A DNA stretch of 64,000 bases from Girardia tigrina. Its lineage: Eukaryota. The first letter of the stretch is position 1; the number at the start of each line of letters is the position of its first letter. The notes beneath the pieces were generated by a model that saw only the letters and a program-made list of their open reading frames with translations, was not told the origin of the DNA and searched no databases. Where the stretch lies: positions 26,949-90,948 of the forward strand of contig MQRK01195884.1 in NCBI GenBank assembly GCA_001938485.1, in the 5' to 3' direction. Both the position numbers and the translations under genes were made by a program. Shown piece by piece: positions 22,401-39,605 of the stretch.

Positions 22401-23327
22401 GTGATAATAATGACATTGCAGATTGACGCATCAGCACAATTGTCGCTGATGCTGCGTTAATACTCAAGTAACATTGAATTAAAATAATTTAATAATAAAA
22501 TTTTTTTTAATATTAATTTATTTCTAAAGATAATTATTTATTTTTCTAAATTTTCTAAAAATCGATTAATTGAAAACTTGATAAATTTTTAATTAAAAAA
22601 AATATATTGACTTTTGTTTTTTTTATTGAAAAATATGTTTAAAATGATCAAATAATAACTGGAAAAAAATAATTAAACAGCAAAAAATGTTGAATAACCG
22701 ATTTTTTTAGTGTGACATTGAAAGAAATCATTAAATTATTCTCAAATATTATCAAATAAAACGTGAAAATTAAATTAATTACTGAAATAACTTTCTTGAT
22801 AAAATGACTTGTTTTAACGTTCTAAGGCAACCGGAATCGAAATTCTTCTAATGTGCCGATAATAATAATATATTATTAATAATAATAACGTAGATTGTAG
22901 AATAAGCAGAATTTTGTTGTGCTAGCGTTAATAATAATGAAATTTATTTATCGATTTTTGAATTGATTTATTTAAATATTTATTACTATTTTTATTATTT
23001 AACTATTTAATTAATTATTAATTAATTAATTGATTTATTTAATTAATTATTTATTTGGTTAATAATTTATTTAATTAATTATTAATATATATATTTATTT
23101 TATTATTTATTTAATTATTTCAGTAAATAATTGATTTATTAATTAGAGGGAGGAACAAAATAATATCTCACTCGGAAAGAGAGGAAATAAATCAATTTTT
23201 ATTTATTAATTAATGATGAATTATATTTTTGTAGAGGGGGCAGATCGGAGGTCATTCCAGAAATTTAACAATCGATAATGCACGCAAGCGAACGCTCAAA
23301 CAATCGATCACAAAAATAGCGACTCAC

Positions 23328-23430
23328 CGGTGAACAGAACATCGCTGCCCGCAAGATTCGCGTTCTCCATATTGATCTCGACGATCTTCAGTCCCAGTTC
23401 CTTCTTGAGAGTCTGTCGAATCAAATTGAC
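23328..23430 (-). CDS. DDAH: DDAH-like gene, exon 2
   Basis: attcag acceptor; VNLIRQTLKKELGLKIVEINMENANLAGSDVLFT(G) aligns to human ENATLDGGDVLFTG; phase-1 donor G|gtgagt. Confidence 0.92.
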
Positions 23431-23475
23431 CTGAATGAATCGATTAATCGATTGATAAAATCGATAATTCGCTAC

Positions 23476-23739
23476 TTCTCCTTGTCGGTGCGCGCCATAC
23501 GGGCTGCACATGAGCGCGGTACCATTGAGAATCACCGCCGTGTCGTCCACCTTCACGCATTCCGGATGGCGCTCCTCGGGCTCGAGCTCCAACACGTCGA
23601 CACCGATTTCTCGGAGAATCTCAACGAAATTGAAATGTTGTTCGCGCGCTTTATTCAAATCGAAATTTGGATTTTTGTTGAATTGCACGAATGATGTCGG
23701 TAGACTACTGACGATCGCAAAAGCGTACTTAAATGCCAT
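23476..23739 (-). CDS. DDAH: DDAH-like (dimethylarginine dimethylaminohydrolase family) gene, exon 1 of 5
   Basis: MAFKYAFAIVSSLP...AREQH...HPECVKVDDTAV...RQGE matches the DDAH N-terminus (human LPDCVFVEDVAV). GT donor at 23475, followed by a 45-nt intron. Confidence 0.92.
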
Positions 23740-24719
23740 AATAATAATTTCCTACTATTTATAAATTAAACAGTGAATCAATTATTTTTACTAAATTGAT
23801 GTAATAAAACAAAAAGTGAGGATTGGATGTTAGGATGAATATATTATTGTAATTTTTTTATTGTTTGATAAGAATAATGGATTTTTTTCGTTTGTTTGTT
23901 ATGGGGTGGGGAATTAATTTCGGTAAATAATTTATTTTACAGGGGAACTTATTTCGAAAAATAATTAATTTCATTAAGGAAATTATTTTTTGTTTAGTAG
24001 GAGCAATGAATTGGTTTTTATTTGTGAAGGATGAGGAATTATTTCGATAAAGAATTAATTTCTTTAAATCACTTTTTTCGATAGATAATTAATTTCGCTA
24101 AAGATCTTTTTTTTTTCAATAAAGAATTAATTACGTTAGAGAACTTATTTTTTGTTTAGTAAGAGTAATTGATTGGTTTCGTTTATTTCTTTGGACTGAA
24201 GAAATATGTCGATATAGAATTAATTTTGTTAAAGAAGAAATTTATCTAGAGTTATTATTTCGACAAAGAATTAATTTCTTCAGGATTTAGAATTATTTAA
24301 AAAAATTTACTTTAGTGCAAATTTTCAGTAGACATTTTTAGTGAAATTAGTTTCGTAATTAGTTTGTTATTATATGATAAGTATTCGAAATGGTAAAGTA
24401 TTTCTTTGGGAATCAAAACTAATTTACCGTTTTCATTACTCTTCCATATAAGTAAGTATTAAATAGTTAATAGTAATTTTATAACAAGAAATTATTATCG
24501 ATAATAATTAATTGATATTTAAAATTTGATTTTTATAAGATCTATGTAGATTTGAACTAGATTTGATTTGATTTTTGATAATTTAATTTATTACTCTTTT
24601 ACAAGAAATTTAAGAAGTATTTAAGTCTCTTTGGAAATATTGTTACAAATTTTATTGTGTTAGATTAATATATAGTGTCTATTAACTTGATGACTGGATT
24701 GTAGTCTCGAAACAAATCG

Positions 24720-25306: not shown

Positions 25307-28300
25307 TGTTGAGGTAATTATTAAAAATAAATAATAAAAGTATTAAAAAATAGACCTTGTTTTAATTAATAAGATAAAATAAGATTTTATTTATCTTTTT
25401 ATCAAATTAAATATAATTTATATATAAATAATTTAATTAGAAATAATTGGAAAGGTAAATAATTAAGAATAAATTAAGAGATATTTATTATAAAGAAATA
25501 ATCCAATTATTTTAAAAGGTAAATAAAGAGAAATCAAATTAAAAAGATTAGTATAAAAATTCGAATAATAAAATGATAATAAACGGCCGGAGTAACTCCA
25601 ACGCTTTTGCTTCATCTCTTCCATTAAACAATTCGATTTTTTCGAACAATGTACCGAATCAAACGACTTTTGTACCGAATCAAATGGCTTTTCAATCGGC
25701 TTTATCGAATAATATTTCGAATTCATCACCGACTTTATCAAATTTTTCCAACTTTGCTAATGTTTCATCAAATAATCAATTTTCTGTCCCCCCCGGCGGG
25801 ACTGTATCTTTCGAAAACCACCAGACGGTAAACTCAATGGAGACTCAAGAGAGTAAAAATAAGCCGAAGCGGACTCCTGCTCTGGCAAGAACTTAAATCC
25901 AACTGACTCTACCTTATACCGGTCCAACTCTAATGATTTAAACAACTTTAATAATAATAATTTTATTCCTCCAATTAACAACTCTCTTATTGATAATTCT
26001 CTTAATACAAATAAAAACTTTGAATTTCTTCTAAAGGACGGTAGGAAAATCTGGAGAGTGGATTTCTCAAAAACAGTTTAATAGCTTCTGTCAGGAGAAT
26101 AAACTCTTTATTTTCCCGAATGTCTTCAGAGACTTCTGCCTTTTTCTTAATAAGAAAACTTCCATCTCTGATTTCTTTTCTCCTTCAATCTTGAAAGATT
26201 TCATTAAGAACAGATTTAAATGTATGATTAATAAGTTTAATAAGAAAGTCGTGTTCATTTCCCCTGGAAAATTCGAAAATGCACTCGATACGTTTTTTAA
26301 AAGGACTAAGAAAAATCTTCCTCGGGGTAAGTACTTTGAAATGTTTAAGGATTTCATTATTAACAAAGTGGACTTCCTTCCTGAGGAAATCTATTCTGAT
26401 AGGGTTCTGTCTTGCTTTCTGGATTCTCTCAATAAAACAAAAGCTAAAGGAAAAGTGAATATTAACTTTCAGGGCATTAATGAACCGTCTGGCAGAAAAT
26501 TTTCTGTCAATTTTAAAAGTTTCAAATCAAAACTGAAGGACTCTCCCTCCTTGCTAGCTCGAACACTTTGGTTGATCTACCACTTTTTGATACCTTTTGT
26601 CAGTTTCTTCAGAGCTCTCCAGCCTTTTTCTTCAACAGACCCTATGAAAACTCTCTTATTGTGTCGTTTTTAGATAGCCTTTCTCAAGAGAATGCGTCAT
26701 TTAATACATTTTATCTTGTTTTTCAACATTTATTAAAAGCGATAGTATATCAATGAAATGCTGTTTGTTTGGTGTAAAAAATAAGATCAATATCTTCAGA
26801 GAAAATTTTGTTCCTCTTAGACACAATATGTTTAAGTTTGCTATTATAGAATGAAATAAAGCTCTTCCTGTTGCACCAACTTTCATTTGTCCACTTCATC
26901 AATGTTTTGGTCCTTCTGCCCCTTCTTGTCATCCTTTTTGTTCTCTCTTCTCTCTGACTCCTTCATCTTTCTCCTTTCCCCACATTGACAACACTGTATT
27001 TTTATCTCGTATAAAAGATTGGGAAAGTAAATTTCCAAACTCTGTAGTCTCTTCCTCTTCCTTTTTATCCTCCGCTCATTCTGATCTCTTCTGGGTTTCG
27101 CTCCGCACTCTTGCTAACAAAAAGAATGAATTTCATCCTGCCCAACTTCTTGCACTGCAGAATGAGCTCTGTCCATCTGTTCCTTTGCCTCCTTATTCGA
27201 CCTCGGATTTCATTGCCAAAGCTCTCACCAATATTTTAGTTGACTCTAAAAATATTAGGGAACCACCACTTGATCCGAAGCTCGTGAGTATCTTCTTGAT
27301 GGTGAGGGACATATTTTCCCAAATTTCTTTTGATATAGCAGACATTTCTATAAAAACATTTATTTTTTATTACAATCAAATAAAAAGTGTTCATCCCATC
27401 ATCATAGCGGAGAAGATTATTCGTATTATTTTGGGACCCGTTGAGGCTGAAAATGCGATCAAGGTTCTCTATGGTGTTGATGTAAATGCACTTTCTTTTC
27501 CATTTACTCATCTAATTGAATTCCATTAACTACTGCTGCTATTATTGAGTCTCAAAAGGACATTAATATGAAACTGAGTGGTGAGAATGATGACGCTGAT
27601 TTATCAGGTGCTGAAGAACTTTTCGTGTCTAGAATCAACTTTCCTACAAAGAAAGTAGCCATCGGGGAAGCTGCTCATGTTTCTTCATCTATCTACATTT
27701 ACAAAACTCATGAGCGACCAATCACTGTTCAATCTCAAACACACGCCTCTTCTTGTAGTCGCTCTCGTTCCCCTGTTTGCTCTAGAACTCACTCTATCCC
27801 TTTCAGCTGTGAATCTAGCTCCCCTCCACTGCCCAATATAAGTCCTATTGTTCCTGTCTCTTTGATTTCATCTGCATCTCTAGTCAGCTTCTCTACACGC
27901 CTTCCACCACAACAGTCACAACCCTTTCTTGGTCCTGATGACAATCAAATGGACTGGGAAGGCTCTTTTTTAACTCTGGTCAAACACCTTCTGCATCTGA
28001 AGAAGACTCTGTTATTACTCCAACTCTTGCAAAAATTTCTCGTCCAGCTGATCTCAACTATATGTGTAAGCAACTTGGGGATAAGAAATATCTTGATAAA
28101 TTCATTGAGAGAATGCTGGAAAGAGTTAAACTGGCTGTAGCCAAGCATAATGATCAAATTCTGTCAACTATTATTCTGTACCTCATTAAAAAACTTAACA
28201 TATCTGAGGAAAATATTCGTAAAAATCGCAAATTCACTGCTCTTTGTAGATCTTTAGTTGTCGTAAAAATTCGGAGTTTGATCAATCCTGATCAATCTCG

Positions 28301-31300
28301 TTGACATTCTGTGTCTGAGACACTACCAGAATCTCTTGTCCGCAATATAACCAGTCTCCCTTCTCTTCCATCTGAGCTCTGGGATGTGCCCACATCTGGT
28401 AGTGATATTGACCTTTTTGCTAATCATTTTATTCATAATAATAAAATCCTTTACATTTCTCCTGAAATTGGTTCTGAAATCCCTCTTGGTGATCTTGATT
28501 CACCTACTATCAACATTACTCCCGAATCAATCACTAATAAAGATTACCTTTTGGTTCTAATTTGTATAGAATCATGTCACTGGATTGTCATTTTAAAAGA
28601 CTATGTCAGAGGTGCCTCCTTCTGGTTTGATCCTCTTGAACCCTTCTCTGAATTTGCCCATGTAGCAGAGGTCTGTTGTAAGTTAATTGTTAACAAAATA
28701 AACTCCTACAATTTTACAAAATGTCATATTGATAACAGATTTGTTTAGGTGAACTCATCGGACTGTGGACTCTGTCTGTCTTTTCCTTCTCTTATTTTCT
28801 TGCTTGTCCTTTTGTCTTGAGCTTTCCCCCTTTCTTCTCCGTCGTCTTCTATTTTCTCTCTCTTCAGACACTCATTCTGATAAACTTGGATATGGGAAGA
28901 CTCCTGCTACCAAGCTCCTTAACTATCTCTCTTTCGATCATTCTTATGTTGATGCATAATGTGTCAAGTACATCAACACTCCTTATACTTTTGTTTTTTC
29001 TGTTTGCCTAACCCGAGCAATTCTTTCGAAGAACAGAGACTATATTTTGATAAACTTCTCCCTTTGTGATATTGTTGGTCGTTCTGTTCTTCACTTTAAA
29101 AAAGAGTTTAAAAAAGACTTTAAAAAAGAGTTTACTGCATTTAGCGACTTTGTGTATCATAATTGTGTGCATCACTCTCAAATCTCTGTAGTGGATGCTG
29201 CTCCAAACTACACTTGATCATACAAAGGGATTGATAGTGGTCTACTCATTTGTGGATACATGAAGCACATTTTAACTAAGCATAGAAATAATATTATTAA
29301 CGTCCAATCTATCCGTCTCCATGCAAGAAGAATCATATTAAACACTAAAATTCAAAAACCTAAGAAACAACACATTAAAACTTCTACAATGCTCAGTGCT
29401 GCTCGTGTTGCACTAGCTGAAAAGATACTAACAAATTATGCTTCTTCTGACATGGAGATATTCTATAAAAATGTGTTAGATAATTGTTACTTAATTAGAA
29501 AAGTAAAACCAAGGACACTGTATTTGGGTAAACCTGAGAAGCTTAGAAAGATGAATGACTCAAAGCTGAAATCTATATTTTATTCTAATCCAAAAGCAGC
29601 AATGAAACATATTCTTCCATCTGCTCGGGTAGACTCTTATCCTCTCCAAAAGTTTTTACTGAATTTATTACTAATAATTGTAGAAATCAAATCAATCTTT
29701 GTAATATTAATTATAATCCTAACTATCATAAAAGGGGTCCGCACTTTGAATTTCATATCCCTACTCTTGAAGAGATTGTTGCGTGCCTTCAAAGCAAGTC
29801 TCAATCAGTTCCTGGAAGTAGTAGTATTATATACAAAGATTTATTATTTTGTGATCCAACAGGCATTCTTCTCCATCACCTCTTTAAAATGATACTTGAA
29901 AAATTTGAAACTTCTCAGTCTTGGAAGAATTACAACACTTTAATAATTCCTAAATCTGGCAAAGATGGAGAGTATCATCTGCCGTTGTCTTGGAGAGGAA
30001 TTGCTCTGCAGGAATGCATTTTTAAAATATTAACAACTCTCTTGTGTAACCAACTAATTGGCTGGATCAATCAGAATAAATTACTTCACCCACTATAGAA
30101 GAGTCTTGGCCCCTCTGATGGTTGTGCTGATCACATCTTTCTGATCCGGGCAATTATTGACTACTATAGAAAGTATATCAATAAACAGGTGGTAATTGCG
30201 TTCATGGATATGGCTGCAGCCTTTGATACAATTTCAATTAGTCATATCCAAGATCGCTTATTTTTAATGAGAGCGAACGGGAATGTTACTCGTTCGATTG
30301 GTGAATTTTATAAGAACTGCTCTACTATTGTCATATATGAGAATGAATCTACTGCTTCCATTAAAATCAATATTGGAGTCCGTCAGGGTTGCCCTTTATC
30401 TATGCTGCTATTTAATACTGGAATAAATCCAATCATTAATGAAGTTGAAGTTCGTAGATGTGGGGGGATTATGATTGGCTCCAGGTTAATCTCTTGTATG
30501 GCTTATGCTGATGATTTGGTCTTTTTCGCTGAATCACCTGATAAATTACAAAATGTTGTTGATATAGCCTCTAATGCAGTCAAAAGTATTGGTATGTCTT
30601 TTAGAGCCTCTAAGTGTGCCATTCTCGATATCCAATACAAAAAGAACACACACACATAACAATCGACCATGTAGACATACCAAATCTTGAAGTTGACGAG
30701 GGATATATGTACTTAGGATCATTTATAGGTCTCATTGTCACATACACACCTGAGAAACTATTCTCTGACATCCTCGCTGACTTAAACTATATTAACATGT
30801 CACTCCTCCTTCCTTGGCAAAAACTGCATGCATACATGTTATTTGAACACTCTAAATTTATCTTTAACTTTAGAAACTCATTCATTCCATTTAGCAAGTT
30901 AACAGAGTCTGTTACAGGATGGGATATCAACATTAAAAGACTTTTCATAGATGTACTAAGAGTACCCGACAACACATCAACACCCTACATCTATGTGTCT
31001 CGTTCCAATGGAGGAGCTGGAATGACTTCTGCCATAGATGAATATATAATCCAATCCATTAGTCACTCCTTTTACATGTTAAACTCCACTGACCCCAATA
31101 TTTCAGAAGCTGCCAATGCCACACTTAGACGCTCTTTACCGGACAGATCTATTGGTTTTGATGTTACACTAAGCTGGCTAAACACTTACAATAAAGAACG
31201 TAACTCATGGTGGAATAAAATACAACAGGCCATCCATGTATTCAAAGACACTCATGGAGTTTTAATTCGATTTCTATGTAGTTACCCTAGAGTAGTGATA

Positions 31301-33050
31301 TCAATCTCACAAAATGTTGGTGGCAAAGTGACTCTTGAGACTATTAATTCTAACAATAAAGATCAATTAACTAAAATCATAAGGAATTGTGTGTCGAACT
31401 CCTATTTGGATCAGTGGAATAAGCAGAATAGTGCTGGTTGATATTCAGTGGCTCTATCACAATCTGCCAACTCTACCTCACCAATATATAACGGTCGACT
31501 CACAATTGCTGAATGGCAATTTATTCATCAAGCACGCTTATACACTATTCCTGTTAAGTGCAGACCGGGTATAATCATTCGCATTCCCTGTTAACGAGGC
31601 TGCTCTAAAGATGAGACTCTTGCTCATGTGTTGGTGGGCTGTAATTTCTTGAGTAACTTCTGGAATGCACGACACAACGCTGTGCTTGATATCTTCACTA
31701 CTGAGATTAAAGCACACTAGGGTGGGTTAGTACATGTGAATGAAACCTGTCGGTATGTTCCTTCCACGAAGCGTGTTGATTTGCAAATCTTCTTTGAATC
31801 AAAAAATACTTAGTTCCTTCTTGACGTAAAATTTCCCTATGATTCCATGCACAATCTTGAGAATGCTGACCGAGAGAATGTGAAAAAATATTTCCCCTTA
31901 ATGTTGCAAATCAAAGATGTATGTGGTTACAAAGTCGTCCTTGACACAATCATTGTTGGTGCTCTTGGTGCATGGTGGACCCACAATGAGGACATCTTGA
32001 ATGACCTCAATTTATCATTTAGAAAAAAACTATAGCCAATGCCTGCGTTGAGTCCAACATTCGTTGGTCCTGCCGTCAATGGGAAGCCTTTCAGGACCCT
32101 CGAGAACAGAACACACACTCAGACATGAAGATGTGATGCACGATCCAAATGCCGGCTTCGAAGCCCTTCAAGAATGGCCCATTTTTGATGAGTGTGACTC
32201 TGACTCTGTGTTTGGAGAGGATCACGGGTTATGGTAGTTGTATGTTTAACATTCTGAGGATTCATATTAGTATTGGGATCAAGATTTTGAATGTTTGTGT
32301 TAGATACAATGACCCAACTTAAGAGTGTTCACTTGAGTTGAACTGCTATGTATGGCAGAGGTGAGAGCTTTTTATGTATGTTGGATCCCAAGTTCTATAA
32401 CTCAGTTTGTTTGGTATCACGATTGCGGTCTTCTGTGTTTCTGCTTTGAACATAGAAAAAGATGAACGCTTGCAATTGTGGGCCCACATGTGCTGGTCTG
32501 CTCTCATGCTCCGCAAAGTTCCAAAACATTTTCAAAAACATTTTGCAAAAAAAGAAGGTTTTAAGAAAAAGGCGAAGAATTATTGATAAGAGAAAGCCCT
32601 AAATTATATATTGAAAGGTTTGCAAGAAGTTAAAAATTCGAAAGGTCAAAAATTTAAAAGATAAATTCATTCAAACGTCTGTCTAGACTGAATTTAATTT
32701 ACATTGTTTAATTGAGCCATATATAAAAGCTCGAATTTCAAACTCAGAACTGATGGAAATTTTGATCATCGGAAAGCTTGAGCAATTGTATAAAGGTGCG
32801 AATAATATATCAATTATATATCTTAAAATAACTATATTCTCTATATTAAAATTTGTTCAGACAAAAGAATCTCTTCTCCCGTTCTATCCAAATTGTAAAT
32901 TATTAATATAGGATTAATTCATTTAAATACTTTCTTAAATTTGATAAATATTTGTACATTGTATATTATAAATAAAACATTAAAAAACAATAAAAATCTT
33001 ATTCTTTTTAATTTCTATTTTTAAATTTTTAATCACATTGATACCCCACA
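25307..33050 (+). mobile_element. TG...CA insertion with a 4-bp TSD (probable solo LTR) hosting the non-LTR element
   Basis: TSD TGTT at 25303-25306 and 33051-33054; ends tgttgaggta / taccccaca. TATA-like tatataaaag near 32720 and AATAAA motifs in the right part. Confidence 0.75.
25573..32553 (+). mobile_element. Decayed near-full-length RLE-type non-LTR retrotransposon (NeSL/R5-like): long N-terminal region, Ulp1-like protease, RT, CCHC finger, RLE
   Basis: Protease motifs HWIVIL..FDPL..(stop)VNSSDCG. RT motifs IPKSGK..SWRGIAL, FMDMAAAFD, GVRQGCPLS, AYADD, YMYLG, GGAGM. ETLAHVLVGC..ARHNAV, KRVDL..LLDVKFPYD. A-rich 3' end. Many stops and frameshifts; 5' boundary approximate. Confidence 0.88.
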
Positions 33051-33160: not shown

Positions 33161-33479
33161 TTTCAAGCAGATTGTGTCACAGTTACTACGATTGGGTATT
33201 AAGATCTTTAAATTTAAATTTTTACTTTTTAAAACACAAATCTTTAATCTCTAATCTTTAATAGTTAATCTGACTCCAATTAATCTATAAGGGCTTCCAA
33301 TAAATAATGAACACAAATTCTTTTATGAAACTTTATTGTCAATAACACAAAATTAACAAGTAGAATAATAATAATAATTCAATTCTTTGATGACAGAAGA
33401 ATTGATGACACAAACACAAATCAATAATTCGTGCGAGTTAACAGATTACAGTGAAAACTATGAACATCCTCTCCCCTTG

Positions 33480-36400
33480 ACCCCATCTAGGTCAACTCAA
33501 CTCTCTTTCACAATCTTTTCTTCATACGATCCATCCTTTGCCTTCTCTTTCTTTCGTTCCTGGTAGATTCTTTCAACATCCTTCTCCACCGAATCATTAT
33601 TTTCATTTTTATTTTTTTTGTCTCCAATTCTCCCATTTTGCTCCCTTCTGATAAAGAAAGTTTGGTCCTTTGTACCATAGCTTTAAATTTTTCAAATCCT
33701 TTCTCATTAAATCCTCTCGATAATATATCCGCGGGATTCTCTTTCGTCGAGATATGCTTCCATTGAGACACATTAGTTCTTGACTGGATTACCCCAATCT
33801 TGTTTGACACAAACGTTTTGTAATGCTTTCCATGTTGAGTTATCCAATAAAGAACGTCTTGACCGTCGCTCCAAAAGTGAATCTCTTTCATTTCCACCTT
33901 CAATGCTCGCGATGTCATTATAGCTAATTTCGTTCCCAAACAAGCTGCAATTAATTCTAACCTTGAGATGGAAATCACTTTCACAGGAGTCACTTTCGCT
34001 CTGGCTATTACAAAATTTACTCTCTCATCCTTCTCTCTTTCTTCTCTAGCAAACACGACCGCCCCATAAGCATCTTTGGAGGCGTTGACGAACACATGTA
34101 TCTCCTTTTCGCTTTCGTTTTCTTTAAATAGCACTCTTTCACATTCAATTTCTTTCAACCTTTTAGCGTTTATCAACCATTTCTCGATTTTACAACATAT
34201 TTTCTTTGGTAATCCTTCATCCCATTTCAGATCAAGCACCTATATCTCTTGAAGAATCACCTTTCCTATGATTGTAAAGGCAGAAAATAATCCTAACGGA
34301 TCGAAAATCTTTGCAATCACACTTAAAAGCTTTCTTTTGGTCGATATGTCTTCTGAATGCACTTTCATCTCAATTCCAAACGTGTCTCGAGCAGCATTCC
34401 AGGATACTCCTAAAGTCTTCGTCATCCGAGAATCCTTGTTTTCCAATTCAAGATTTTTCGAACTATGTTCAGATGGGATCGTTCTCAGAATTTCCACGTT
34501 GTTGGTTAGCCATTTATTAGTTTTTCATCCCGGCTACACCCCAAATTTCTTTTATTTCTTCCATTCTCTTTAAGCCTTCTTCCGTTGAACCCACTGAAAT
34601 TAAGGTATCATCCATATAAGTTCCCCGAATCAACATTTCCGCTACCTCTGGATATTTATCCTTAAATCGCTATGCATTAACTCTGGTCACTAATTGAGCA
34701 ACAAAAGGAGACACGTTCAAACCAAAGATTAATCTTTCGAATTCATAATATCGCTTCTCTTCGTCCACATAACATTCAAATCTTAAAAGTTTTCGATTTT
34801 CAGGATCCACTCGAATTTGCAAGTACATCTCTTGAATGTCACAAGCAATCGCAATTTTTCCTTTCCTGAATCGTAACAAAATCTCGATCAAATCGTTCTG
34901 CAGCTTTGGTCCTGAAATAATTTTGTCATTAAGACAAATTACATTGCTCTTTGCAGCGGCGTCGAAAACAATTCGAATTTTGGTTGACTCTTTCTCCCTC
35001 TTTACGATAGGAAAATATGGAAGCCACCATTTCGTTTCATTAATGTCAGGCTCATATATCCTCCGAGTATATCTCTTTCTCTCGTAGTCCAAAATGATAT
35101 TTTAATATTCCATTTTCAATGTCAAATCTTTGTCAAATCTCTTTCTCAAACTTTCATTTCTTCTTCGAGACATTTTCTTGCTCTCGAGTAAATTGATAGT
35201 CTCCTCAACAAAGGGTAAATTAACCTCGTAACGTTCTCCATCATAATAAATGTTTTCTTTAAATGTTTCTAAGATCTCATTCTCCTCTCTGGTGTTTTCA
35301 GTAGAATCATTAATATCTTCAACTTCCAAGAATCTCGATAATAAATTTTTCAAAACCATTTCTTCCGAGCACAGAGTCTGAATCATTTGAGTTTGGATTA
35401 AATTCCATCTTGTTGTCGGTACTCGTCCAACGCAAGTCCATCCCAATGGAGTCAATCTTGCGATTGGATCATTTTCTTTTCCTTGAATCTCTCTGATCAC
35501 TCGATGTAACTGGAGATTGTCTGCTCCGATCAATACATCAACTCCTGCTTTCTTGTCGATCTTGGGGAACTCTATCTCCTGCAGGTGATCCCAATTTTTC
35601 GAAAGCATTCTCCAGTTACATAACTCATTCCTACTCAAAATTCGATCAATGGCATAGGCATGGAATTGTTGGACAGTCTCTTTTGAAATACTCTGCAATT
35701 CAATCTGGATTGGTTTCACCTTCGATTGCCTCTGAACTCCTCCAATCGTAGCTACTGGAATTGATCTCTGTCTTCCTCGAATCCCAAGTTCCAAGCACAC
35801 TGATTTACTAATATAACTCACCGTACTGGCGTCATCGAGTAAGGCATTTACCTTTAACTCTTTTCCGTTGTGTTTCAGTATAACTGGAACCGTCCTCAAG
35901 GCAATATACGTTCGATTATTTACTGAGCGCTCCGTTCTCGTCATCAGTGTATTTTCCCGATTTTCTCCATCCTTCTGAGTCTTTGAGTTGCTGAAATCCA
36001 TGTGTAACAGCCAATGATGTTTTCCTTAGCATCCATCTTTTTTTACAGAAACCTTGCTTTAAACAGTTTCTCAAGGTATACCCTTACCGTAAACAGTTAA
36101 AACAAACTCATTTCTCCATTAGAACCTCTTTTCTCTAATTCAAATTTAGATTTAAGAACTTCTTACATTTCTCAAGAAAATGTTCCTCTTCACACAGGAA
36201 ACAACTTATCTTTCGAGCATTATTAACACCTTCAAATATTTGATCTTCGTGTTCAGTTAATAAAGTCGTCTTTTGTTTTGGTCTTTTTGTCGCATCCGTT
36301 CCATTTAATCGCTCATCGGTCTTTCTTTTCAGTTCGGTCTCGATTTTCAACAATTATAAAAATCTTTCTATTATGGGAAAGCTATCTCCTTTTTCTTTTA

Positions 36401-37540
36401 ACTGCTCTCTTTCCCACATCAGTAATAAATTATCCGAGACGCTTTTTAGCAATTCATTATAGAAAAACCCATTCTCCAAATCGTGACATCGATTTTGATT
36501 CTTCAATTTGAGTACGATTTCCTAGATCAATCTAACATATTCGTCTAATTCTTTGATTTCATCAGTCTTGATCGGCTTGAATCTCCAAACTTCCTCCATC
36601 AGAGTCTGAAACATCCTGTCCTCCCCCGTATCTCTCTTCCAGTCGTCTCAAGGCAGTCTGGAGGGCATGAGAACCGAAACCCATGTTCTCGATAAGTTTC
36701 AGAGGTTCACCCACTAGAGATTGCTTCAAATATAATAATTTCTCCTCGTCTGAAGCGTCCGTATCAACGACCGTTACTCGGAACGTCATTCTCCGAATCT
36801 CGAATTCCTTTCATCCTTTTCTCCAAACGTCGGCACCTTGAGTGGGCTGAACATCCTCAACTTTTTCTTTGTCTTCACTTCGGATATGATATTTGGAGAA
36901 GAAGTTCGGATACTCATTGACGTGTCTTCTTCGATCAGATCTCCATACTTCTCATAATTTTCCCCGATTGTCCTCAATTCTTTCTTCATCTCATCGACTT
37001 CTTCTTTTAATTCGTTCTTTTCTCCAATATCGATCAAATTTTCAAAATATTGTTTCTTCATACTTTTCTTCGTAATGGTCACCCTTTGATTTTACCGACG
37101 ACCTTTCTTTAATTTCCTCAAGAGCCGAATTTCGCGGCCTTGTTAATCTCATTTTTTTCGTCCTTTTCTTTTTCAATTCTTCTTTGAATTCAAATTTTGA
37201 ATTCTCCTCGTCCATTCCTCCTTTCAGACGGAGAAGAAGCTCAATCGTTGCATCCTTCTGAATTCCATGATCTCGTAACGTATTTTCTTCATTCATCGTC
37301 TTCCCACTGTAGATCAATCTCTGGAATCGTTGCGGAATTCCTTCTCTGTCGAAGATCATATCTTTCAAATTTTTGACTGTATCATTTGAATCGACCTGAA
37401 TTAAAATTGTTTTCCCTGATAGTAATTTTAAAAATATTTGAGATAAATTCGATTCAACTTTACTATCTCGAAAATTATTATCTCAGGCCCTTATCTTGTC
37501 TTTAACATTAAACTCATTCTCATATTGGAGCAAAAAGAAA
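33480..37540 (-). mobile_element. BEL/Pao LTR retrotransposon fragment (Ubl-gag, protease, RT, RNase H; integrase and LTRs not seen)
   Basis: Gag DUF1759-like KLLYLKQSLVGEP..LEERYG, three zinc knuckles ending HHWLLH, ALLDDAS protease, KIRIVFDAAAK/GPKLQ/YMDD RT, FDPLG, and HVFVNAS..AYG..RLEL..NPADILSRG RNase H. Confidence 0.92.
37216..37443 (-). other. Ubiquitin/NEDD8-like domain fused to BEL Gag
   Basis: SQIFLKLLSGKTILIQVDSNDTVKNLKDMIFDREGIPQRFQRLIYSGKTMNEENTLRDHGIQKDATIELLLRLKGG: 76 aa, ungapped against ubiquitin, 39/76 identical by hand count. Confidence 0.9.
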
Positions 37541-37626
37541 GGAGGGAGATCTCGAAATTCAAAATTTATATTTAATGTATATATAATATATTCAATTTTT
37601 GTATAAATAAATATATTATTACTTAC

Positions 37627-38210
37627 ATTTCTCACCGACCGAGTATGAACTACAACTCGGAAAAATCGAATCCCGCGCTCCTCATCTGTTCGCGTTGTGG
37701 TCATCGTCGAGGGTGGTTGACACCCCCTCGCTTGAACGACGATCGTTGAAGGCGGCGACCGGAATTCTTTCGCCCGAATGGCGATCGCTAGCAGCTGCGG
37801 CCGGAAACCACGCTCCCCTGCTACCAGATGTTCCGTCTGATTTAAATAAAACGCCTTTGTTAGGGTTGCGTACTAAAGAGTGAAACGGGGAGATTCGGTC
37901 GCCTAGCAATAAGGCTTACCGTATTTCGGTGGCGTTCATACTTTCGAAGGGTCGCCACCTTACCCGCGCGCACCGTGATCCAGACGATGAAGGATCGGGG
38001 ATCGGTCACTCGTGACACATCGGAAATGGCGCAATTGATCGAGGAAGAGACGACCGATGTCGACGATTTACAATCGATAAACGCGACAATCGCTCCGCTG
38101 GAGTTGTTGTTCTGATGAATTCGGATTGTTTTGATTTTGCCATGACTAATGTCGGTTTCTTCGCAATTTTTCGGTAAATTATTAATCCATAAATAACAAG
38201 TGATTCTCAT
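37627..38210 (-). pseudogene. spen: Decayed copy of a spen/SPEN (Msx2-interacting protein) first exon
   Basis: MRITCYLWINNLPKNCEETDISHGKIKTIRI...AIVAFIDCKS resembles SPEN RRM1 (MVRETRHLWVGNLPE...FVDIKS) but has deletions and frame breaks. Ends at a strong donor gtaagt (37626). Confidence 0.65.
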
Positions 38211-39605
38211 GATTTGGAACAAACAGAAAGTAAATCTTTCGACAATTTATTCTCTTGTTGTTGTTGACTTGGATTTCCAGTAAATCATAAAATACGAGAG
38301 AAAATACGTTCTCGATTTGTAATTATTGGAATCGTTTTATTTATGGTATTATCCACAAAAAATTAAATATATACGGAAAAAATTGTGAATGAAAAATTAG
38401 CAAGGTTTTTTATTTAGAAATTTAAAAAAGTACATATAATTGGTATTATTAAAACACCAACAGTTTTTTTCAGTTTTTATCAAAAATTTATTGAAAATTT
38501 TTTTTAATTTTTAAAACTGAATTTTTCAGTTTTAAAAATTTCAGGAGTCGCAAGTCCAATTAAGAAAGTTTTTTTCAAAATTAAAAATCAAAAAAATAAA
38601 ATTAAATATCACTTAAAAAACTCTTAATTGGTTGCTACTGTTGATGCGATTTAGTGAACACTACAGCCTTTTTAATAATTTGATGACATTTTTATTATTT
38701 TGGGATTTATTGAGAAATGGTAAAAATTATTATTTTTAATTAATATTTTTTAGAATTTAAATATTTTAAAAAATGACTTAGAAAAATTGTTCGAATAATC
38801 ATGATTAAAAATAGAAATAAGAAAACCAATTAGAATGATGACAAACGATGAAAGACTTTCTGAGAGTCACAAGGACTCTAAATGCGATTATAATAAAAAT
38901 TCAAACGAGACTTGTCTAAATGTTCTTAATAAATGAACATCTAGTTAGATGAACACATTGAATGTACATTTGCAAGTTTAAAAGAACAACCATAACTAAA
39001 CAGAGTTATTCATATCTAAGAGATTGTATATTCTCCAGATTCGTGAAGTCTTTGTTATAAATTCATGTTAACAAAGATATTATTGTTCTCCGATTTCATG
39101 AAATTTCAGGTTTACAAAAACAAATTTCAAATTTTTAAAATGTTAAACTTGCATAAAATGTTAAAAGTCATAGGTAACAACCATTTCCAACTTCAAAATC
39201 ACTTGTATATATAGTTTCAAAAATACACATGTATTAAATGTACCTAACCATCTCAAGTACATATGAACTCCGTACTTCATATTTAAAACTGAAACAACAT
39301 CTTTTACAAAAGCAAAATATTCATTATACATAAAATTAAATGTATTTAATGTTTTAAATTAAAAATAGCAAATCTGATATCTGATATTAGGTGTATTATA
39401 TTTCAAATCATGCAAATAATTAATTTGGATAATTTCTAGATTTATTTGGAATTAAATTGAGGATCAAATTTTCTTTCAATTTTGTTGAATATTTAAATTT
39501 AAATATCTGTATCGTAATTTTAAATTCGAAACTGATTTTTAATTGCAAAAATATTATGTGGATGAAACAATTGAGAAAGCACGCACCGCGCTCAAAACTT
39601 TCAGA

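Follow-up and report, generated by a model that had tools for sequence, protein, structure and literature searches.

Linear fusions of the type Ub-GG-X, including host polyubiquitin and the ubiquitin-ribosomal protein fusions, are cut by deubiquitinases, normally at once, unless X is proline. Passages of PMC8310069 describe viral polyproteins that contain such a unit: in cytopathic BVDV (Osloss, CP1 and CP Rit) ubiquitin releases NS3, and pestivirus inserts consist of host ubiquitin, in some cases with its first residues missing and placed behind a piece of another host protein. Host sequence is also found in LTR elements, and sections of Tan et al. 2016 (PMC5131818) on LTR-mediated retroposition report spliced pieces of host mRNA, sometimes from several genes, in sense and in frame, with template switching as the proposed route. 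In planarians, the giant Gypsy elements Burro/GYPSM1 carry a Ubi2/SUMO-like motif (PF11976) among their captured domains, as stated in parts of PMC6431247. For BEL/Pao elements, the main text of a survey (PMC3118150) has no instance of the word ubiquitin (its supplements may bear on priority), and no description of ubiquitin before a BEL Gag was found in the literature searched.

Here, we analysed 64,000 nt of the Girardia tigrina genome (contig MQRK01195884.1, positions 26,949 to 90,948 of the forward strand; this whole stretch is hereafter the window), which hold a decayed, integrase-less BEL/Pao copy on the minus strand whose Gag is preceded by a ubiquitin-derived domain (Ubl). Ubiquitin before Gag is a feature of a whole lineage of elements; judged by analogy, the lineage probably represents a new form of BEL/Pao that carries a pestivirus-like processing signal. 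The features of the window are collected in Table 1.

Table 1 Features of the BEL/Pao copy and other features in the window (positions are those of the window).
Feature	Position	Strand	Remark
5' LTR remnant	37829..37835	-	last 7 nt, CGGAACA; same end as the L031 LTR
PBS, begins TGGTAGCAG	37809..37826	-	presumed tRNA-iMet type; small variant in window subfamily
Leader in Gag frame	37444..37808	-	first ATG 37704-37702; one stop 37485-37483
42-nt repeat in leader	37740-37810		copy number differs among elements, frame kept
Ubiquitin-derived domain, 76 aa	37216..37443	-	RLKGG end; Pfam ubiquitin and alignment to ubiquitins
BEL Gag	36014..37215	-	helical N-terminal part from Met 37215
DUF1759 capsid part of Gag	~36830-36600	-	Pfam, E 6e-4 (below cut-off, decayed copy)
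Cys-His knuckles of Gag	36203-36165 and ~36040-36014	-	
Aspartyl protease	35630..35878	-	Pfam Asp_protease_2, E 3e-5; LDDAS at 35839-35825
Reverse transcriptase, broken	34600..35000	-	Pfam RVT_1, E 6e-6; YMDD at 34618-34607
Pao RNase H region (Peptidase_A17)	33865..34340	-	E 1e-27 and 2e-7; no integrase after
Polypurine tract and first 5 nt (TGTTC) of 3' LTR	33462..33478	-	then unrelated repeat
Solo LTR of another high-copy family, 808 bp	37858-38665	-	TGTAGTG...AACA; AAGGC duplication on both sides
Decayed non-LTR element	~25500-32100	+	RT-like and endonuclease-like motifs by eye; presumably R2/NeSL-like
Possible Ulp1-like piece	28305-28748		no Pfam match
Exon-like frame	23308-23751	-	dimethylarginine dimethylaminohydrolase-like by eye; no Pfam match at E 0.001

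Almost nothing is left of the LTRs of the window copy. At locus L031, the LTRs are 444 bp long and 98% alike, with TG..CA ends and a 5-bp target duplication (AAGAT). The 808-bp block upstream of the PBS was considered as the element's own LTR and rejected, as it is a solo LTR of a different family with 1117 candidates in the genome. The Gag frame is shifted near 37045, 36815 and 36620 and carries stops; the original prediction, made from the letters of the window, that the Ubl runs after small frameshifts into a BEL Gag with a DUF1759-like part and zinc knuckles proved correct, and the DUF1759 match reaches E 8e-14 in the sister copy L039. Integrase is missing in the window copy, L039 and L043, and present in the related ubiquitin-bearing elements L050, L135 and P0001. 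In L039 and L043, 383-446 nt separate RNase H from the polypurine tract, and together with the window copy they probably form a non-autonomous subfamily. A PBS was found in every family examined. Its common form is complementary to L108, a shortened tRNA copy in the genome that has CAT in its anticodon loop and ends in CCA, which was not called as a tRNA by ARAGORN or Rfam and which we take to be of the iMet type.

The Ubl of the window copy matches Pfam ubiquitin (PF00240) with E 1e-21 and aligns without a gap, being identical to an animal ubiquitin unit at 39 of 76 residues and to the genome's own ubiquitin at 40; as predicted, it ends in LRLKGG and is followed directly, in frame, by MDEENSK. 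The best 60 matches in a PDB search were all ubiquitin or its variants, and the domain has R72 and is by eye unlike host FUBI. A FUBI origin was also rejected for the most diverged Ubls of the genome, which end in KLLGG: they match Pfam ubiquitin in 3/3 cases tested and are unlike host FUBI. Conservation was scored over 17 representatives, 13 from this genome and four from outside. Fold residues are conserved and the tail is kept (G76 17/17, G75 16/17, L73 16/17, R72 13/17, R74 9/17), the exceptions being one family with LCGG and single copies with EG or GE. K48 and K63 are each present in 13/17, the Ile44 patch is poorly kept (I44 9/17, V70 8/17, H68 8/17), and M1 is retained in three. Identities range from 27 to 73 of 76 across families, and host enzymes may cut the most diverged Ubls (27-40/76) poorly. 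About half of the families have Met after GG and several have Ser; proline was never noted. The junction thus keeps the cleavable look ascribed to it, and the Met-initiated Gag that had been envisaged holds for some families and fails for several, since those with Ser after GG lack a Gag start codon of their own.

A query of the Ubl and the Gag start against the animal's own genome (1.43 Gb) yielded 2776 candidates and at least 150 scored matches, at 39-100% identity. Because this selects on ubiquitin, a Gag-only query was used too, and ubiquitin lay directly upstream in 39 of the 50 loci fetched; the 11 misses comprise eight loci without upstream DNA and three without a Gag start. Copies of the element lacking the Ubl, or a Ubl matching a host gene, i.e., the outcomes against which the original prediction had been set, were not what was found. 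From 150 DUF1759 matches, 46 loci were chosen; ubiquitin was matched at 22 of them, and at least 10 more had a diverged Ubl ending in KLL(G/S)G (Pfam ubiquitin in 3/3 tested). At the remaining loci, L222 has only the tail of ubiquitin before Gag, L203 has a candidate Ubl that gave no Pfam match, and others are shifted, truncated or gapped. The 116 distinct ubiquitin units fell into 17 clusters, some of which are fragments of others. Overall, the layout occurs in about 15 Gag families, down to ~45% RT-RNase H identity, and GG precedes Gag in 129 of 152 copies (anchored on 16 Gag starts; copies inside one family are not independent), which supports a family-wide version of the suggested capture of ubiquitin by the element.

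A stop-free frame links ubiquitin and DUF1759 at L033, L037, L039, L047 and L048; long open frames in genome listings were discarded as evidence, being mostly runs of N. L050 has LTRs, a PBS, two ubiquitin units and integrase in last place, and no envelope gene was seen in it, the one full-length element examined. In copies with tandem ubiquitin, GG is present at the Gag-side tail in 10/10 and at the upstream tail in 0/10, a comparison that may trace to one or two events.

The searches also returned several variant arrangements. One Ub-BEL family (L037, L267, L264) has two CCCH zinc fingers instead of the usual Gag knuckles, and at L269, L270 and L271 ubiquitin and the Gag start continue into a long coiled-coil repeat rather than a capsid domain. 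The KLLGG family (L200, L212, L213, L226, L231) carries an LRR-gene piece in a ~1.3-kb leader, with more than 100 matches, and its LTR pairs lie ~5 kb apart, which suggests a short non-autonomous form. Many dispersed polyubiquitin genes of two or three units with AT-rich codons (L237, L243, L248-L254) lie in a repeated 2-3 kb unit; they are saturated at silent sites relative to the GC-richer L238 type and are possibly carried by another mobile element. At L256 (847-1779), ubiquitin and a second diverged unit are followed by a CCHC-like motif unlike BEL Gag, perhaps a ubiquitin fusion in another element class.

Outside this genome, a Gag profile run against 1.84 billion protein representatives returned at least 150 matches, and ubiquitin before Gag was found in six of 156 proteins scanned, one of them belonging to the window family and one lying, by eye, close to families of this genome. 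P0129, P0134, P0138 and P0149 have ubiquitin before a Gag with 34-58% identity to the nearest of 11 Gags from this genome; P0138 also has, by eye, an HSP90-like piece. P0001 comes from a JGI metagenome and is 95% like family L047; its single unbroken frame of 1709 aa runs from an HSP90 piece through ubiquitin, Gag, protease, RT and RNase H to a partial integrase. The outside proteins with ubiquitin before Gag are JGI, ENA and MetaClust records. A ubiquitin-plus-Gag query against long proteins was dominated by polyubiquitins, and the lack of BEL domains in the best 120 of its 398 matches is uninformative. Among longer proteins, a Gag profile gave two distant matches without ubiquitin, which is weak evidence, and the nearest named relatives (Sycon, Mya, fish) have no Ubl. 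RT-RNase H identity amounts to 44-45% with P0002/P0003 and 36-37% with fish elements. In an RT-RNase H tree, which includes five own rows without Gag in view and is drawn without named superfamily references or a non-BEL outgroup, a single clade (SH-aLRT 95) unites P0001 with all 21 own rows and leaves out four ubiquitin-less outside proteins. With an N-truncated row and a long branch placed outside the group, monophyly of the ubiquitin-bearing Gags was rejected (p-AU 0.0006); it was not rejected (p 0.26) once the truncated row was taken in, the long branch removed and distant outgroups brought in, the group for this second test having been redefined after the first tree. The Ubl is covered by contigs from two runs of a single leaf-litter metatranscriptome study, one of which spans the junction, but these contigs may not be transcripts.

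The Ubl is internal, and the Gag frame is open back through the PBS into the LTR. The three frames of the window leader hold 1, 8 and 14 stops, where 8.2 per frame are expected. Between PBS and ubiquitin at 39 gap-free loci, the Gag frame holds 157 stops and the other two frames 427 and 395, with shuffles giving an expectation of 402, and leaders free of any stop number 13 in the Gag frame vs. 1 and 2. Over the final 240 nt ahead of the PBS at 54 loci, the sense frames are stop-free at 14, 8 and 2 loci vs. 2, 0 and 4 for the antisense frames, and in two families the frame with eight seems to be that of Gag. The PBS-to-Gag distance modulo 3 is distributed 20/18/10 over 48 decayed copies and is uninformative. 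The proposal that Gag begins with the Ubl as its N-terminal leader is not supported, given that M1 is rarely kept and that the frame begins well before the Ubl, within the leader or LTR. It had also been stated that no in-frame start Met survives in the window copy; the first ATG past the PBS does lie in the Ubl frame, but a stop separates it from the Ubl.

Pieces of host genes occupy this open region. Pfam matches in 19 of 62 leader frames comprise HSP90, Nckap1, tubulin, PRMT, SMC, phosphoesterase, Vac14, LRR, 14-3-3 and a second ubiquitin, and 7 of 22 LTR frames, a set that overlaps the leader set, have a host piece (HR1 and cyclophilin included); an RPB10 piece also lies upstream of ubiquitin. 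In the Vac14 piece, three exons of the host gene follow one another directly (92-96% identity), with the two GT-AG introns absent and the start codon present, i.e., it is the 5' end of a spliced host mRNA. It lies downstream of an AATAAA run and therefore probably in U5. The captured pieces keep long open frames, vary among copies of one family and derive from unrelated source genes. The source gene of the LRR piece was looked for and not found, and Pfam recognised no host piece in the window's own leader. By eye, the leader at L089 (2524-2781) resembles a piece of elongation factor 2, without a Pfam match. An intron in the AT-rich leader, considered on account of a GTAAGT donor-like site in the window family, was rejected, as other families have no consistent site; no GT-AG joint occurs in the contigs, though contigs do not prove absence.

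The Ubl protein is under selection. Between families, pS of the ubiquitin units is mostly 0.7-0.95, i.e., saturated, vs. a pN of 0.03-0.45, which agrees with the long selection foreseen in the original prediction. In the 19 window-type copies, four silent changes (49 sites) and one replacement (179 sites) recur in at least three copies, and the rare changes (23 silent, 45 replacement, five stops) are as expected for decay after insertion. Furthermore, Ubl modules have been swapped between families at the GG junction: L050 and L034 differ at pS 0.24 in ubiquitin vs. 0.89 in Gag (43% Gag identity), L141 and L167 at 0.25 vs. 0.89, and the window type and L168 show the reverse, with a Gag pS of 0.36 and a Ubl pS of 0.88. 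Between the window copy and its sister copy L046, DNA likeness starts again at 37222, at the Ubl-Gag junction. Several families carry a near-host ubiquitin (pN 0.02-0.03 and pS 0.36-0.6 to host), and in two families pS to a host polyubiquitin unit is 0.36-0.43, which suggests that these two re-captured ubiquitin from the host.

From these patterns, we infer that the Ubl serves as a spacer cut by the host, with deubiquitinases cleaving after GG and freeing Gag-Pol from a variable translated leader, a sequence-based reading to which we assign a probability of about 0.7. Translation would begin upstream, within the leader or LTR and in some cases at a start codon taken from the host, and the cut after the Gly-Gly would give Gag-Pol a fixed Met or Ser start. 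The leader would then be free to change, and host sequence taken up in the 5' region would leave the capsid unharmed. Host pieces and fresh copies of ubiquitin would presumably enter by template switching during reverse transcription.

It is unlikely that the released leader-Ubl is itself the selected product, its free GG end being conjugated to host proteins or acting as a decoy and the host fragments serving as dominant-negative modules. The retention of K48, K63 and R72, the regaining of near-host ubiquitin in several families and the long open frames of the captured pieces are consistent with such a function; however, copies within a single family carry different pieces, whose source genes are unrelated, conservation does not extend to the Ile44 patch, and L222 has only the ubiquitin tail before Gag. 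Since a released product requires the same cleavage, this explanation would add to the spacer reading rather than replace it.

Quite improbable is a start of Gag at the Met after GG, with the Ubl serving chiefly as a recombination handle, or as cargo that is maintained through repeated exchange with the plentiful polyubiquitin mRNA. Such a Met occurs in about half of the families, the swaps are centred on the Ubl and the genome has many polyubiquitin copies, but the Ser-type families have no Met at this position, strongly diverged Ubls still show a pN far below pS and keep GG, and the leader is open in the Gag frame. We consider it very improbable that the Ubl remains attached, whether to recruit ESCRT or further ubiquitin receptors or to direct Gag to the proteasome, given that an intact GG is normally cut at once when the next residue is not proline. 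In favour of an uncut fusion, its fold residues are conserved and, according to parts of PMC3751857, ubiquitin on Gag helps retroviral budding; however, no envelope gene was seen in L050, and the poor retention of the Ile44/Val70/His68 patch speaks against the ESCRT recruitment raised in the original prediction. A one-off insertion of a ubiquitin pseudogene beside a BEL copy, to which the decay of the window copy and the unrelated repeats on its flanks might point, is refuted by the genome search, the Gag-only search and the GG count, the same junction being present in dozens of window-family copies, about 15 families and unrelated metagenome proteins.

If the Ubl is such a host-cut spacer, a whole retrotransposon lineage would need host deubiquitinases for its first maturation step, which would explain how constant capture of host mRNA upstream of Gag is tolerated. 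The elements would also constitute a natural source of exon shuffling, and their naturally diverged ubiquitin series (27 to 73 of 76) may reveal the minimal needs of deubiquitinases. A wider proposal, towards which we remain somewhat sceptical, is that the LTR of this BEL/Pao lineage is an exchangeable translation-start module that samples host mRNA 5' ends together with their start codons, has them translated in the Gag frame and discards them by means of a ubiquitin that the host cuts. Such a module could borrow host translation control, recombine between distant families via ubiquitin homology and make host-fragment-ubiquitin fusions with conjugatable ends.

Relative to the known systems, the layout combines familiar parts in a different order. 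In host ubiquitin precursors, ubiquitin is both the N-terminus and the product, whereas here it is internal and often half diverged. As in the pestiviruses, ubiquitin lies within a polyprotein; there, host hydrolases give an authentic N-terminus, as they presumably do here. However, the pestivirus inserts are found in sporadic RNA-virus mutants and before NS3, whereas the Ubl precedes the capsid protein, has long been diverging and is fixed across a whole lineage. In LTR-mediated retroposition, as far as the relevant passages of PMC5131818 go, retrocopies replace internal sequence; here, multi-copy families retain their gag-pol, and the pieces, which lie in the LTR and leader, are joined to it in frame via ubiquitin. 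Burro/GYPSM1 are Gypsy elements whose motif lies downstream of Gag, between MATH and BCL-2, and the portions of PMC6431247 that deal with it state no processing role. With BEL/Pao (Belpaoviridae), the elements share a DUF1759 Gag, Cys-His knuckles, protease, RT and Peptidase_A17, integrase in last place (L050), TG..CA LTRs and a 5-bp target duplication; they differ in the ubiquitin before Gag and in an LTR and leader that look translated and hold host pieces.
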